The position numbers were made by a program, and so were the translations under genes. A stretch of DNA of 19,970 nucleotides from a virus: the UHGV virus genome UHGV-0369446, one strand, 5' to 3'. Position 1 is the first letter of the stretch; each line of letters starts with the position of its first letter. The notes beneath the pieces were generated by a model. It searched no databases and was not told the origin of the DNA. It worked only from the letters and a program-made list of their open reading frames with translations. Below are positions 3,257 through 15,715 of this stretch, piece after piece.

Positions 3257-3694
3257 TCATCGAAGGCATTGCGTCCTGATGTATTCCTGCAGGTAGTTAA
3301 CCTGCGCGGTTATCTTGTCGATTCCACTTCGGAGACGGTAATAATTGAGTTCAGCATCTGCTGTAAGTCTTGGGCTTTCTCCATTGCCCATGCTGCTGGC
3401 TCCGGTCGTTGACTTTGCACAGGTGGCGGCGACTTGCAGGCGCTTACGACCAGCAGAAACATCAGCACGGAGACTTTCGATAGTCGCGTTAGCATCAGCA
3501 AGCTCCTTTGTGTATCTGGCGTCGAGTTCTGCTACATCACGTTGACGCTTCTGCATGTCAGCAATTGTGGATGCGGCCTTATCGCGCTGCTCTTTGTAGG
3601 CGATGGCGTTATCACGGTAGTGATTAACAGCCCATGACAGGCAAACGATGATGCAGATAACCAGAGCGGAGATAATCGCGGTTACTCTGCTCAT
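3257..3694 (-). CDS. Rz: i-spanin Rz (inner-membrane spanin subunit)
   Basis: 145-aa ORF immediately after the endolysin with a 4-nt overlap. It has an N-terminal hydrophobic segment then a charged coiled-coil-like region, and it contains an embedded +1-frame lipoprotein ORF, the classic lambda Rz/Rz1 arrangement. Confidence 0.85.
3310..3501 (-). CDS. Rz1: o-spanin Rz1 (outer-membrane lipoprotein), embedded in Rz in another frame
   Basis: 63-aa ORF lying wholly inside Rz. It has a signal-peptide-like stretch ending in the lipobox-like VVSAC followed by a proline-rich tract ([13 protein letters not shown]), as in lambda Rz1. The exact start (M1 or M3) is uncertain. Confidence 0.72.
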
Positions 3695-10403: not shown

Positions 10404-10435
10404 AATGACTCCTGTGGATTGATCCAGTAATGACC

Positions 10436-10732
10436 TCAGAATTCCATCTGGATTTGTTCAGAACGCTCGGTTGCCGCCGGGCGTTTTTTATTGGTGAGTC
10501 CATCAAGCGCATACTTAAAAGCCCTGCTAATCGGACTGATGTCTGATGCCATTCCGAAAGCACACAAGACCGAAGCAATAAATCTCCAGTCCGTTCTGCT
10601 TATCTTCGATTCATGACAGCCAATCATCTTTGCCAGACCGCGCTGGGTAATAGCTGACAGATTGATAAGTAAATCTGTTTCTGCGCGATCAACGTCACGC
10701 TGTGATAGTTTGCTGTAACTTGTTCTTTCCAT
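10436..10732 (-). CDS. cII: CII-family transcriptional activator (chimeric: divergent N-terminal part, lambda-type C-terminal tail)
   Basis: 98-aa ORF. The last about 20 residues (LTNKKRPAATERSEQIQMEF) match lambda CII from memory. The rest has a helix-turn-helix-like segment (GLAKMIGCHESKISR) but differs from lambda CII. Confidence 0.8.
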   Translation of the reverse strand: MERTSYSKLSQRDVDRAETDLLINLSAITQRGLAKMIGCHESKISRTDWRFIASVLCAFGMASDISPISRAFKYALDGLTNKKRPAATERSEQIQMEF

Positions 10733-10816
10733 TTCTTAAGATTTCCAATAGTGAATAGTTAGTTGAAAGGTATGCGTGGAAACGCATATGGCCTTAGTTG
10801 GTCAGATATCTTGGAA

Positions 10817-10873: not shown

Positions 10874-11089
10874 TTAAGCGGCTTTGTGTTCCGGCGGGAA
10901 CACGTCATCAAGACTGACTTTTGCGCCTAACTTGTTTAGGCACGCAACAAGAGCACGGCATGTTTTAAGGTCTGGGAAGCGACGACCAGATTCCCAATGT
11001 CCGATAGCTCCCTGTGTGCATCCAACTGCCTTAGCAAGTGTTGTTTGAGAGATATTCAGTGACTCTCGATATTTTCGTAGGTTGCTCAT
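10874..11089 (-). CDS. cro: Cro-like repressor (helix-turn-helix)
   Basis: Trimmed to the internal Met, which has a GGAGGG Shine-Dalgarno 4 nt upstream. The 71-aa product MSNLRKYRESLNISQTTLAKAVGCTQGAIGHWESGRR has an HTH whose recognition helix (TQGAIGHW) is similar to that of the divergently encoded CI (TQGGIGHW). The long 128-aa form in the ORF track has an implausible hydrophobic leader. Confidence 0.75.
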   Translation of the reverse strand: MSNLRKYRESLNISQTTLAKAVGCTQGAIGHWESGRRFPDLKTCRALVACLNKLGAKVSLDDVFPPEHKAA

Positions 11090-11200
11090 ATGCCCTCCAT
11101 AGTAAACACGAATAAAAAAATACAATATGTACTTTGCGAATACAAGTAAAAATACACATTGTGCATGGATGGTTCCAGTACAGAGCGTAATAATAAGGAC
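11090..11200. promoter_or_regulatory. OR region: divergent pR/pRM promoters and operators
   Basis: 111-bp AT-rich intergenic region between divergent cro and cI. It contains palindrome-like elements (TACAATATGTA, CACATTGTG) and a TACTAT hexamer upstream of cro. Exact operator boundaries are not resolved. Confidence 0.6.
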
Positions 11201-11860
11201 ATGAAAATGAAATGGTATGAACTGGCTAGATCCAGAATGAAAGAGCTCGGCATAACTCAAGAGAAGTTAGCCGAAGAGCTAGGTATGACGCAGGGTGGGA
11301 TTGGACACTGGTTGCGCGGATCTCGTCATCCATCTCTTAGTGATATTGGTGTGGTGTTTAAATACCTTGGTATTGATAACATATCATTCAACCACGACGG
11401 GACATTTTCACCTGTTGGCGAATACTCATCGGCCCCAGTTAAAAAACAATATGAGTACCCTGTTTTTTCTCATGTTCAGGCTGGGATGTTCTCTCCAGAA
11501 CTCAGAACCTTTACCAAAGGCGATGCGGAGAGATTGGTAAGCACAACCAAAAAAGCCAGTGACTCTGCATTCTGGCTTGAGGTTGAAGGTAACTCAATGA
11601 CCGCACCAACAGGTTCCAAACCCAGCTTTCCTGACGGGATGTTAATTCTGGTTGACCCTGAGCAAGCTGTTGAGCCCGGCGATTTCTGCATAGCCAGACT
11701 TGGTGGTGATGAATTTACCTTCAAGAAACTGATCAGGGATAGCGGTCAGGTGTTTCTACAGCCACTAAACCCACAATACCCAATGATCCCATGCAATGAG
11801 AGTTGTTCCGTTGTGGGGAAAGTTATCGCCAGCCAATGGCCTGAAGAGACGTTTGGGTGA
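11201..11860 (+). CDS. cI: CI repressor (heteroimmune N-terminal HTH domain, lambda-type C-terminal S24/LexA-like autocleavage domain)
   Basis: From [26 protein letters not shown] to the C-terminus (..[12 protein letters not shown]) the sequence matches the lambda CI C-terminal domain from memory. The N-terminal domain differs from lambda CI. The start is either ATG 11201 or ATG 11207 (better spaced from the AAGGA Shine-Dalgarno). The ORF-track start at 11159 is probably too far upstream. Confidence 0.9.
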
Positions 11861-11899
11861 TGAAACCACTTTTATCTACAATTTACAGGGCGGTAAACA

Positions 11900-12457
11900 T
11901 TGGCAAAAATAGATGATTATCAGCCAAGCCAAGTAGAAGTTGATAAAGTACTTTATTGTAAAAAAATAGTTAACTTTTCTGGCGTTAAATGGAAACAGAA
12001 ACCAAGTCGCTCTGATATGTGGCTACAAGCCCATATCATCCCCTTGGATGAGGATTGTATACCTATACAAGGGCTAAAGTTTGAACTGAAATGGAAACCA
12101 GATCAGGATTCAGAACCTGATGACCCGATTTCTTACCCTAAAATAAATATTATTGCTTTCTATCATAACAAGAGGGTTTTCGCGGTAGATACCTATCACT
12201 TTGACAAACACACGAATAGTTACAAGGTCGATCATCCGAAGTACCAAGATATCATTTACGGTGCTCACTACCATGTATACTATGAAGAAGCTGGATACTA
12301 TAGTGATAGAATAGCGTTTCCAATCGAAGATGACATAAACCCAGATGACCTGGTAGGGTATTGGAATTACTTCTGTAAACATCTGAACATAACTTACTCT
12401 GGGAGAATACCTTTACCGCTTGAAGATGAGTCGGGGCAAATGGGGTTTGGAATATGA
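11900..12457 (+). CDS. hypothetical protein A (185 aa) of a two-gene operon in the rexA position; function unknown
   Basis: ORF beginning 40 nt after the cI stop. The only in-frame start before codon 40 is TTG at 11900 (in-frame TAA at 11894..11896). AT-rich composition; acidic, Tyr/His-rich product (YGAHYHVYYEEAGYY); no hydrophobic segments. Its stop overlaps the start of gene B (ATGA). Confidence 0.6.
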   Translation: MAKIDDYQPSQVEVDKVLYCKKIVNFSGVKWKQKPSRSDMWLQAHIIPLDEDCIPIQGLKFELKWKPDQDSEPDDPISYPKINIIAFYHNKRVFAVDTYHFDKHTNSYKVDHPKYQDIIYGAHYHVYYEEAGYYSDRIAFPIEDDINPDDLVGYWNYFCKHLNITYSGRIPLPLEDESGQMGFGI

Positions 12458-13206
12458 TGTGCTCAACAGTGATCTCACAACTAGGTTTCGAATGCCATCC
12501 AATAGGCAAGACCTTGAGAATTATCAGTCCATTCACTTACTGTGATGATGGAGAGCATGTCGGTGCCTTTATCCGTGAAGTCAATGGTAGGTATTTAGTT
12601 AGTGACAGATGCGATGCCTTAATGAATATGGAGGCAAGAGGGATCTCGCTTACCAAAAAACGACTTGATGAGATACGACAATTACTGCTTAAAGAAGGCG
12701 CAGAACTCAATGCTCGAGGAGAAATCATTGCTTGGGCAACAGAAAAGGATGTCGGTGCGATTACATCGAACATAATTAGAGCTGGTATACTCGCATCAAC
12801 TTTGTCGTTAGACTGGTATCAGCCAGTTCAAGCTGAAAAGTTTGAAAGTATGGTTATTGATTATCTATATCACACAGAGCTTAGAGACGCACTTTCTCTT
12901 CGTGAAAACGTATATGGCTTGAGTGGACATCAAATTACCGTCCCTGTAACAATAAAAACCGACATACCTAAATACGTTTTTACATCAAGCGTGAAACACG
13001 GAGGAAGCTGGAATAGTGCTTACTCATTGCTTGGGAAACTAATTGATCTTAAAGCTTCAAGTGAGGAGTATAACAACAGATTTGTTGTTATAGACAGCGA
13101 AGCAATTGGTGATCAAATGCAACAACTCTCCTTACTCTTCCATGAATCAAGCCAAGTTCTACCATTCTCCAAAAGAGAGACTTGGGTTAAGAGACTTGCA
13201 GCATAA
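12454..13206 (+). CDS. hypothetical protein B (250 aa) of a two-gene operon in the rexB position; function unknown
   Basis: ORF starting ATGATG and overlapping the gene A stop. AT-rich. No membrane-spanning segments evident, unlike RexB. Followed directly by a strong intrinsic terminator. Confidence 0.65.
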   Translation: MMCSTVISQLGFECHPIGKTLRIISPFTYCDDGEHVGAFIREVNGRYLVSDRCDALMNMEARGISLTKKRLDEIRQLLLKEGAELNARGEIIAWATEKDVGAITSNIIRAGILASTLSLDWYQPVQAEKFESMVIDYLYHTELRDALSLRENVYGLSGHQITVPVTIKTDIPKYVFTSSVKHGGSWNSAYSLLGKLIDLKASSEEYNNRFVVIDSEAIGDQMQQLSLLFHESSQVLPFSKRETWVKRLAA

Positions 13207-13210
13207 TACA

Positions 13211-13238
13211 ACCCGGCCTCAGCGCCGGGTTTTCTTTG
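13211..13238 (+). terminator. intrinsic terminator ending the cI / rex-slot operon
   Basis: CCCGGC-CTCAGC-GCCGGG hairpin followed by TTTTCTTT, immediately after the gene B stop. Confidence 0.75.
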
Positions 13239-13424
13239 CCTCACGTTCGCCCACCTAAAAACACATAACCAATTATATTTATTGAAAAATAAATAGATGC
13301 AACCCACTAAACCACGCAATTCTGATCTCTCCTTACATCGCCGAGGCAATACATCCACGCTAAAAAACAACACTATTAAATACAAAGCGTTATAAAAAAC
13401 CACGCCAACTTACAACAAATTGTA

Positions 13425-13453
13425 TTGATCTTGTAAAGTACATATCGTACTAT
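13425..13453 (+). promoter_or_regulatory. putative pL promoter (with OL operators in the surrounding AT-rich region about 13380..13460)
   Basis: TTGATC (13425..13430), a 17-nt spacer, then TACTAT (13448..13453), oriented toward N. Flanking palindrome-like elements TACAACAAATTGTA and GTACATAT share half-sites with the OR region. Confidence 0.5.
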
Positions 13454-13498
13454 TTAACCGTCAGCAGGACGCTGGAAGCCAAATGGAACAGACTGGCA

Positions 13499-13642: not shown

Positions 13643-13915
13643 ATGTCCAGAAAAACAGAATTTAAAGGCACCGCAGCTTCTCGCCGTAGAGCTCGTCGCG
13701 CAAATCTGCAAAGTCAGGAGGCGATCAGCTCCGACAAGCTACACAGGCCAACCCCTTCACGAGTGGTCTTGCAATGCAAGCTCAAACCAGCAATGAGAGC
13801 AGAAGTGATAACTCTGACAACGTTGACCAGAAAATATGAAGGTTCAACTTGTCTTCCGAACGTAGCTCTTTACGCGGCAGGCTACCGGAAATCAAAACAA
13901 CTGACGGCGAGATGA
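13643..13915 (+). CDS. N: N-family antitermination protein
   Basis: Start placed at the ATG preceded by GGGAGG (MSRKTEFKGTAASRRRARRANLQSQ...). It has an N-terminal arginine-rich motif like N proteins and is the first gene after pL/nutL. The sequence differs from lambda N and resembles non-lambda N variants (phage 21 / P22 gp24 type) as far as I recall. Confidence 0.7.
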   Translation: MSRKTEFKGTAASRRRARRANLQSQEAISSDKLHRPTPSRVVLQCKLKPAMRAEVITLTTLTRKYEGSTCLPNVALYAAGYRKSKQLTAR

Positions 13916-13931
13916 TAAATTCATTTGCTAA

Positions 13932-14513
13932 TTACTTGTTTTTGCCATGCTTATCCTGAGCGATAAGTTCATCCATAAGGCTGTCTGCCTTCCCGGCAAA
14001 CCTAATGTAGCACTCATGTCTATAGCTTTCAGGGATAACGAAACGGTCGGTATCAGGATATCCAACAGCAGGAGGCCTTCGAACGAGGAGTCCTTTTTTG
14101 AGCAATGAAATTGATTCATGAGCGCCCTTTTCCGTTTGTAGCTGGTTATTAGCGGCTACAGCGAATGCCAAATACGCTCTTTCTCCAAGAGTTAACGAAT
14201 CAAACAAATCTTGCACATATTTTTCTTCTTTAGATTTGCGCTTCTGAGCAGCGAATACCTCAATTCTTTCAGTCACAGCGTGATAAGCGGAATTAACAAC
14301 GCCGTTAAGCACATAGCTAACGCAAAACAACAGGATGTAATACATCCAGTAATGAGGAAGGATTTCTGGATTATGCAGGTTTATCCATTCTTTTACGCTT
14401 ACCGGCATAACAATAATCAATATGATCAGGATGATTAGCATATGAATCAACTGTTTAAGTGTCATTCCTTGCAGGAAAAAATGCATTAGTTCCTGCCACC
14501 ATGAGTTGTTCAT
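13932..14513 (-). CDS. sieB: superinfection exclusion protein SieB
   Basis: 193-aa ORF with an N-terminal hydrophobic membrane segment (LIHMLIILIILIIVMPV). It lies on the opposite strand between N and ral, as lambda/P22 sieB does. Similarity to SieB is from memory. Confidence 0.7.
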   Translation of the reverse strand: MNNSWWQELMHFFLQGMTLKQLIHMLIILIILIIVMPVSVKEWINLHNPEILPHYWMYYILLFCVSYVLNGVVNSAYHAVTERIEVFAAQKRKSKEEKYVQDLFDSLTLGERAYLAFAVAANNQLQTEKGAHESISLLKKGLLVRRPPAVGYPDTDRFVIPESYRHECYIRFAGKADSLMDELIAQDKHGKNK

Positions 14514-15478: not shown

Positions 15479-15550
15479 GCGCGGCGTTACCGCATACCAA
15501 TTACGCTTCACTCGAGGCGTTTTTCGTTATGTATAAATAAGGAGCACACC

Positions 15551-15715
15551 ATGCAATATGCCATTGCAGGGTGGCCTGTTGCTGGCTGCCCTTCCGAATC
15601 TTTACTTGAACGAATCACCCGTAAATTACGTGACGGATGGAAACGCCTTATCGACATACTTAATCAGCCAGGAGTCCCAAAAAATGGATCAAACAATTAT
15701 GGCTATCCAGACTAA
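15551..15715 (+). CDS. cIII: CIII (inhibitor of FtsH, stabilises CII)
   Basis: Manual translation gives [54 protein letters not shown] (54 aa), matching lambda CIII from memory. Below the ORF-track cutoff and in a different frame from the listed 89-aa ORF. Confidence 0.85.
   Translation: MQYAIAGWPVAGCPSESLLERITRKLRDGWKRLIDILNQPGVPKNGSNNYGYPD

Follow-up and report, generated by a model that had tools for sequence, protein, structure and literature searches.

A two-gene cassette directly downstream of the cI repressor in lambdoid prophages: A candidate anti-phage module of the lysogen

Relation to described systems of the immunity region

In lambdoid prophages, the interval between the repressor gene cI and the antiterminator gene N is a hotspot of mosaic diversity and the home of the abortive-infection systems rexAB and bstA (Owen et al., PMC8585504). 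Here, we consider the occupant of that interval in UHGV virus genome UHGV-0369446 (the whole stretch analyzed, 19,970 nucleotides in length, is referred to below as the window): a cassette of two overlapping genes, which we call A and B, set between cI and an intrinsic terminator in a lambdoid immunity region whose orientation is the inverse of the lambda map. An earlier note on this DNA had proposed that the pair is a novel exclusion system expressed from the maintenance promoter pRM in the lysogen. Our analysis leads us to favor a closely related reading, namely that A–B is probably an anti-phage defense or abortive-infection module made at low level by the lysogen. That the repressor operon of lambdoid phages carries defense cargo is known already, and the pair itself has been flagged computationally before. 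What is added here are the exact boundaries of the cassette; the linkage of A and B over at least 10 immunity types and down to approximately 21%–28% identity of A; the retention of a weak start codon in A, together with the translational coupling of the two genes; an A protein with an orphan fold and a candidate active site; the departure of B from the canonical active site; and a link to Escherichia coli Nissle 1917.

As in lambda RexA–RexB, the two genes lie downstream of cI on the cI strand and are followed by a terminator, OL/pL, and N, and by analogy with lambda, expression from pRM in the lysogen may be presumed for A–B as well. The earlier note had read the locus in this way, and its description proved accurate in each element: the end of cI, the start of A, the ATGATG of B over the stop codon of A, and the order of the terminator, OL/pL, and N after B (Table 1). 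It had likewise seen no resemblance of the products to RexA or RexB, and we found none, with hhalign probabilities of 0.4%, 0.4%, and 0.1% and no Pfam match to a Rex family at E ≤ 1. RexB has a polytopic membrane topology. It is described as an ion channel (PMC8585504), whereas B of the present pair lacks membrane segments and is predicted to be soluble. The gene junctions differ too, in that lambda rexA and rexB are separated by a 15-nt gap, whereas A and B overlap by 4 nt and the start codon of A is TTG or GTG.

BstA of Salmonella prophage BTP1 (PMC8585504) shares with A–B a position directly downstream of the repressor across genera, presumably a common promoter, and a terminator of its own. 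It consists, however, of a single protein together with the DNA self-immunity element aba, whereas A–B comprises two proteins of other families.

Two computational predictions bear directly on the pair. The PADLOC system PDC-M24 is a two-gene candidate with the same order of components, and A and B match the respective profiles: B over residues 2–249 (positions 4–254 of the 256 in PDC-M24B; E = 4.7e-10, with a second B profile at E = 1.5e-7), and A weakly, over residues 104–163 only (E = 4.8e-4). Among 15 members of the A family, three PDC-M24A profiles drew 7 matches, all of them weak (best E = 2.4e-4). The PDC systems are 145 candidates embedded in BREX, DISARM, or type I restriction–modification (RM) loci (Payne et al., bioRxiv 10.1101/2024.01.29.577857); the A–B pairs, in contrast, lie behind prophage repressors in the loci that we surveyed. 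DefensePredictor (Science 2026, PMC13092281) lists the exact proteins, from an ECOR assembly, as "Predicted novel defense gene," with log-odds of 5.64 for B (WP_000968518.1) and 4.90 for A (WP_001062368.1). With both proteins listed there and remote relatives making up PDC-M24, the word "novel" in the earlier note was an overstatement. The same study describes DS-6/HipAD, one of two validated systems that implicate DUF1829, a domain also found in B, in defense; in that system, DS-6B joins DUF1829 to DUF3037 and acts with a HipA-like kinase, whereas B is a DUF1828–DUF1829 fusion paired with a DUF6978-like A.

Boundaries, linkage, and expected expression of the cassette

Phages that share the cI of the window (2G7b, a Shiga toxin 1 [Stx1]-converting phage, and E212) hold other genes between identical junctions. 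Nucleotide homology to these phages stops at 11858–11862, at the cI stop codon, and resumes at 13209–13210, at the first base of the terminator stem. Comparison with Salmonella, other genera, and the IMG/VR locus L048 yields the converse picture, in which similarity is confined to the stretch from 11901 to 13233–13240, that is, to A, B, and the terminator. As judged from these alignments, the exchangeable unit is exactly A plus B, running from the repressor stop codon to a terminator common to all cargo. No other feature of the sequence argues more strongly than this placement of the boundaries, at the cI stop and the shared terminator, for a cargo that is read on the repressor transcript. The slot is thus interchangeable among same-cI phages, in keeping with its original description as a cargo site. 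The other occupants are further candidates in their own right: a 283-amino acid (aa) protein without family in 2G7b (L010, 2360–3211), in E212 (L012, 2388–3245), a 285-aa protein that has an NYN domain and weakly matches PADLOC HEC-09, and ORF b63 (173 aa) in the Stx1 phage (L011, 2763–3284).

Exchange has also occurred across immunity types. In two IMG/VR loci (L045 and L046, approximately 3356–3447), a 99.6%-identical A–B lies behind a different S24 repressor, accompanied by a 27-nt remnant of the 3′ end of the window-type cI (window 11833–11860), which points to recent recombination between immunity types. These arrangements bear on the possibility that the pair modulates the prophage's own lysis–lysogeny decision or its induction. 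Such a role would suit genes that adjoin the genetic switch and are embedded in the repressor operon at every locus. However, a 99.6%-identical cassette behind unrelated repressors and operators must be independent of any particular switch, same-cI phages either lack the cassette or carry unrelated cargo in its place, and no DNA-binding domain was detected in A or B in our Pfam scan; we therefore regard a part in the switch as quite unlikely.

To assess linkage more broadly, we surveyed the window and 94 further loci from genomes and IMG/VR, all of them on prophage or viral contigs, in which B identity ranges from 47% to 100%; a scan of genome contigs holding one genome per species gave 8 loci. 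The surveyed genera include Escherichia, Salmonella, Yersinia, Providencia, Xenorhabdus, Pectobacterium, Pantoea, Izhakiella, Thorsellia, and Aeromonas, and a Klebsiella homologue was also found. The survey revealed a conserved pair that is linked to repressor genes in 95/95 loci, with A directly upstream of B and a 4-nt overlap in every one. Clustering at 50% identity divided the nearest same-strand open reading frames (ORFs) upstream of the pair into at least 10 groups; among 10 group representatives, 9 are helix-turn-helix (HTH) and/or Peptidase_S24 repressors. Even where A homologues are only 21%–28% identical, a DUF1828 gene still abuts or overlaps, and an S24 repressor precedes the genes at two such loci. 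In every lineage, A has diverged more rapidly than B (survey identities of, for example, 70% versus 84%, 48% versus 69%, and 36% versus 54%).

Two side observations arose from the survey. In nine loci (from Izhakiella and Providencia and from several IMG/VR prophages), the repressor and A are separated by a DUF3024 gene of 113 aa (L013, 3044–3385; L015, 3053–3394; also L016, L059–L062, and L064), which may represent either an accessory component or a third piece of cargo. In addition, residues 1–97 of B are encoded, at 82% identity, on a 518-bp contig labeled Actinomadura rugatobispora (L020), which most likely reflects enterobacterial contamination of an actinomycete assembly.

Within E. coli, the cassette is present at ≥99% identity in 250 of 5426 complete genomes, always on the chromosome, including those of Nissle 1917, ATCC 25922, and ATCC 11775, and phages ev207, ev017, PhiR57_1, and PhiR63_2 carry copies with 100% identity. 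The window-type cI (at least 80% query coverage) occurs in 776 of the same 5426 genomes, so that approximately one-third of this immunity type has the cassette.

The GC content of the cassette is 39.5%, versus 47.2% for the whole window, and is the lowest among all segments of 1348 bp (0.1% are equally low), bearing out the initial impression that A and B are AT-richer than their surroundings; GC content at third codon positions (GC3) is 0.34–0.36 in A and B versus 0.45 in cI. Relative to Salmonella orthologues, the proportions of nonsynonymous and synonymous differences (pN/pS) are 0.158/0.877 for A and 0.088/0.744 for B, and by this measure, A and B are real genes under purifying selection. 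Morons acquired by horizontal transfer are typically AT-rich, and there is an enrichment among the top matches in extraintestinal pathogenic E. coli (ExPEC), avian pathogenic E. coli (APEC), and commensal B2-type strains; composition and occurrence might thus both be expected of a lysogenic-conversion moron conferring a phage-unrelated benefit on the host (stress tolerance, colonization, or virulence). Against a moron of this kind, which we consider improbable, stand the cytoplasmic location of both proteins, the nuclease-superfamily fold of one of them, and the fact that two independent defense predictors flag the pair or its relatives.

The layout of the locus suggests that the cassette is co-transcribed with the repressor, and it is very probably expressed in the lysogen. 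Terminator scans found no site in the 39 nt that separate cI from A, and the only one returned on the + strand of the cassette was the hairpin that begins 3 nt past the B stop codon (an 8-bp stem with 6 GC pairs and a T-run; folding energy −17.2 kcal/mol, z = −2.4). Promoter-like sites in the cassette are not above chance (5 found, versus 5.8 expected from shuffled sequence), and an independent internal promoter for A–B is neither supported nor excluded by such consensus matches. The presumed placement on the repressor transcript also bears on a possible anti-defense or counter-defense function during infection, as phage accessory regions hold anti-defense genes as well. The pair lies, however, upstream of the terminator and outside the pL early operon, so that it would be made in the lysogen and not in early lytic growth, and its relatives occur within BREX and RM loci of bacteria; a counter-defense role strikes us as highly improbable.

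Translation of the pair appears to be restrained. The proposed TTG start of A is well founded: An in-frame TAA in the spacer bars any start farther upstream, the next in-frame ATG is codon 40, and PGAP annotates the same TTG in Nissle 1917. The N-terminal pattern MAK-DDY-PSQ-EVD and residues MAK, D6, P9, Q11, V14, D15, L18, K22, W31, and K34 are invariant across 18 homologues, and this conservation of the first 39 residues, together with the agreement of PGAP, indicates that the TTG start is real and that the first 39 codons are translated. Of 10 lineages, 9 start A with GTG or TTG, and Thorsellia alone has ATG; three distant A lineages start with GTG (one) or ATG (two). Because a weak start codon has been kept although synonymous sites are saturated between lineages (pS 0.74–0.88), the comparison suggests selection for low translation of A, in line with the low output first surmised. 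The apparent ATT start in one IMG/VR locus (L047, approximately 3402–3477) is an artifact of a 1-nt shift relative to neighboring sequences, within or upstream of gene A, for which a frameshifted copy or a sequencing error are possible causes. At the junction of the two genes, the first ATG of B overlaps the TGA stop of A as ATGA.

The features that flank the cassette are typical of a lambdoid immunity region (Table 1), and the identical Nissle 1917 locus (L009) is related to the window by adding 5860 to its coordinates. The operator-like sequence at OR recurs at OL, with a 21-nt match (86% complementary) between 11115–11135 and 13435–13455 and a 12-nt match between 11119–11130 and 13415–13426. 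The annotation of the Stx1 phage places putative operators and a cI maintenance promoter in the region homologous to OR, and putative operators and a promoter, likewise labeled "maintenance promoter for cI," at the place homologous to OL/pL. The cIII thermoregulator RNA downstream of N confirms the orientation of the pL operon; it was the only match in an Rfam scan of the whole window, and the cassette was without any. Repeats within the cassette are limited to short two-copy matches at chance level. Directly after N lies a SieB superinfection-exclusion gene, and the immunity region thus holds a second, independent exclusion function.

Table 1. Coordinates of the cassette and its neighbors in the window
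Feature	Position	Strand	Remarks
cro-like repressor gene	10874–11089	−	Divergent from cI; ORF; PGAP "helix-turn-helix transcriptional regulator" in identical Nissle locus
OR / pRM–pR control region	11090–11164	.	Operator-like sequence 11115–11135
cI repressor	11165–11860	+	Pfam Peptidase_S24 (E = 1.3e-28) and HTH_3 (E = 2e-10); PGAP LexA family protein, PGAP start 11165; stop TGA 11858–11860
cI-to-A spacer	11861–11899	+	39 nt; weak Shine–Dalgarno AGGGCGG; in-frame TAA 11894–11896
Gene A	11900–12457	+	185 aa; TTG start
Gene B	12454–13206	+	250 aa; starts ATGATG
Intrinsic terminator after B	13210–13239	+	Hairpin 13210–13231; counterpart of lambda tImm; closes cI–A–B unit
OL operators / pL region	13415–13455	+	Operator-like repeats match OR region
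N antiterminator	13643–13915	+	First pL-operon gene; Pfam N_peptide (E = 9.7e-33); PGAP CDS
SieB superinfection-exclusion gene	13932–14513	−	Pfam SieB (E = 2.5e-22)
cIII thermoregulator RNA	15538–15596	+	Rfam Lambda_thermo (88.5 bits)

Folds and conserved sites of proteins A and B

A belongs to a very small family (20 cluster representatives out of 1.84 billion at E ≤ 1e-3). Its AlphaFold2 (AF2) model is mostly beta (predicted local distance difference test [pLDDT] 82; predicted template modeling score [pTM] 0.81), and the protein, which lacks a signal peptide and membrane segments, is predicted to be cytoplasmic (maximum 19-residue hydropathy 0.45). A Foldseek search of the model against BFVD gave no match at E ≤ 1e-3, and a profile search of both A and B against PDB sequences gave nothing below E = 0.2. 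In Pfam, A reaches 22 bits against DUF6978, versus a cut-off of 29.6, and only along the C-terminal part of the profile, with sub-threshold DUF6978 matches in 5 of 15 family members; on these scores, A is a remote relative of DUF6978 and not a member. For the pair as a whole, an NCBIfam search returned nothing, and the PHROGs that cover the two proteins (2017 and 1960) are both entries without an assigned function. A deep alignment of A reveals invariant residues K22, W31, R92, D97, N106, G121, H123, H125, F158, and P173, with H104 nearly invariant. Of these, D97, H104/N106, and H123/H125 fall on consecutive predicted strands, and we infer from the model that the D97/H104/N106/H123/H125 cluster may constitute a metal or catalytic site. 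HNH, cupin, HIT, and 2H readings of the histidine motifs do not fit the predicted secondary structure and were set aside.

B is modeled as a soluble alpha/beta protein of two domains (pLDDT 84), again cytoplasmic and without a signal peptide or membrane segment (maximum 19-residue hydropathy 1.19). The N-terminal domain is Pfam DUF1828 (33.5 bits versus a cut-off of 22, residues 26–110; 8 of 8 diverse members match), with a YbjN/type III chaperone-like fold and invariant residues C3, C14, D32, E34, D51, and E90. To residues 129–250 we assign matches to restriction-endonuclease-like structures (Can2, 10.1; PspGI, 9.8; BstEII, 9.7; NgoMIV, 9.6; also AF1548, Bax1, and Cfr10I), and the corresponding alpha-beta-beta-beta-alpha-beta core fold is present. 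These matches agree with the published assignment of residues 155–241 to DUF1829 (clan PDDEXK; HHpred, 98.8%; DefensePredictor Table S5, PMC13092281). The statement that neither protein showed any family or nuclease motif was thus only half right: B is a DUF1828–DUF1829 protein with a PD-(D/E)xK fold and A a remote DUF6978 relative. In the C-terminal domain, G155, S157, G158, P164, T177, G194, D198, and D214 are invariant, whereas H159 and K173 are invariant in the close family only and lost in distant members. Strands 160–167 and 173–178, as mapped from the AF2 secondary structure, hold no invariant acidic residue. We reject the reading of B as a canonical PD-(D/E)xK nuclease, as the D…(D/E)xK triad is not conserved. 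The architecture of B also recalls the sensor–nuclease fusions of the Can2/Card1 type (CRISPR ancillary nucleases), but the likeness is one of architecture only: The N-terminal domain is YbjN/chaperone-like rather than CARF, the catalytic triad is absent, and there is no cyclic-nucleotide synthase nearby.

These properties are also relevant to whether A–B might be a toxin–antitoxin (TA)-like addiction module that stabilizes the prophage or its immunity region without acting directly on other phages. A pair of small genes that overlap, are translationally coupled, and have their expression tightly limited by a weak start codon would fit such a module, as would the strict co-inheritance of A and B and the retention of the cassette at ≥99% identity in 250 genomes, including the defective Nissle prophage. 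Yet searches of Pfam, NCBIfam, and PADLOC linked neither protein to a known toxin or antitoxin family, both exceed the typical size of type II components, and the fixed position between repressor and shared terminator points to a service function expressed in the lysogen. Addiction as the sole function is, in our estimate, unlikely, and the distinction is not a sharp one, in that many TA-like pairs are themselves defense systems.

A proposed mechanism and its implications

In the reading that we favor, A–B would be mobile two-gene cargo within the repressor transcription unit (pRM/pRE, cI, A, B, terminator) that protects the lysogen from infection by other phages. Output would be kept low by the GTG or TTG start and weak Shine–Dalgarno sequence of A, with B relying on re-initiation at the ATGA overlap. 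How the two proteins might divide the work can be sketched only tentatively. B would be the effector, its DUF1828 domain binding a partner or ligand and controlling the DUF1829 domain, in which a restriction-endonuclease fold would present the non-canonical site S157-G158-H159, D198, and D214. A would serve as its partner, either detecting the incoming phage or regulating B, and may itself be a metal-dependent enzyme; its casting as sensor or regulator follows from its faster evolution relative to B and its conserved D97/H104/N106/H123/H125 cluster. Activation would then damage nucleic acid or arrest growth, and thereby stop the spread of the phage.

Several considerations weigh against this reading. 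The assignment of sensor and effector draws only on relative evolutionary rates and analogy of fold, and transcription of A–B from pRM has been deduced just from the missing intervening terminator and the likeness to lambda. The matches of A to PDC-M24A and DUF6978 are weak and partial (E of approximately 1e-4, and below the Pfam cut-off for DUF6978). Nuclease activity of B is doubtful given that it has no D…(D/E)xK triad and that K173 and H159 are not invariant. Of the units tested in the DefensePredictor study with log-odds of 3.6–7.6, 10/26 were validated by our count (from PMC13092281), so that approximately 60% of candidates in that score range showed no phenotype. The pair is not among the tested units of that study (Table S6), the PDC systems are themselves candidates, and we found no published experiment on A–B; a literature search on the domain families, PDC-M24, and the carrier phages likewise returned no study of the pair.

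The presence of the cassette in Nissle 1917 provides a possible connection to a known phenotype. This strain was found to be resistant to lambda and Stx phages, which has been only partly explained, and it was concluded that further prophage-3 factors are still to be identified (Bury et al., PMC5987069); a supplementary table of that study lists the two "hypothetical" genes adjoining cI as absent from the comparison strains. The "phage repressor (pr)" EcN_1294 cloned by Bury et al. (2018), which cut lambda and Stx plating approximately 200-fold (PMC5987069), can be ruled out as this cI or as a part of the cassette. Its primers map to window 10408–10778, over a 98-aa cII-like ORF on the − strand (10436–10732) that PGAP annotates as a CII family transcriptional regulator. 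A more ambitious proposal, which we regard as speculative, is that a new-fold A with an invariant Asp/His/Asn metal site, acting as sensor or enzyme, controls B as a YbjN/chaperone-gated, non-canonical PD-(D/E)xK protein, and that this mechanistically new prophage immune module is a main cause of full lambda and Stx-phage resistance in strains such as Nissle 1917.

The conserved weak start and translational coupling offer a clear, testable case of dosage control for a potentially toxic module on a repressor transcript. If A–B does act in defense, it would be the third unrelated family, after RexAB and BstA, in the repressor-linked slot of lambdoid prophages, and would provide the first functions for DUF1828, for DUF1829 in this architecture, and for a DUF6978-like fold. 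It would also help explain heteroimmune exclusion in approximately 4%–5% of complete E. coli genomes, including Nissle 1917, ATCC 25922, and ATCC 11775, and would bear on phage therapy, on the safety of probiotics with respect to Stx-phage conversion, and on the choice of laboratory hosts.

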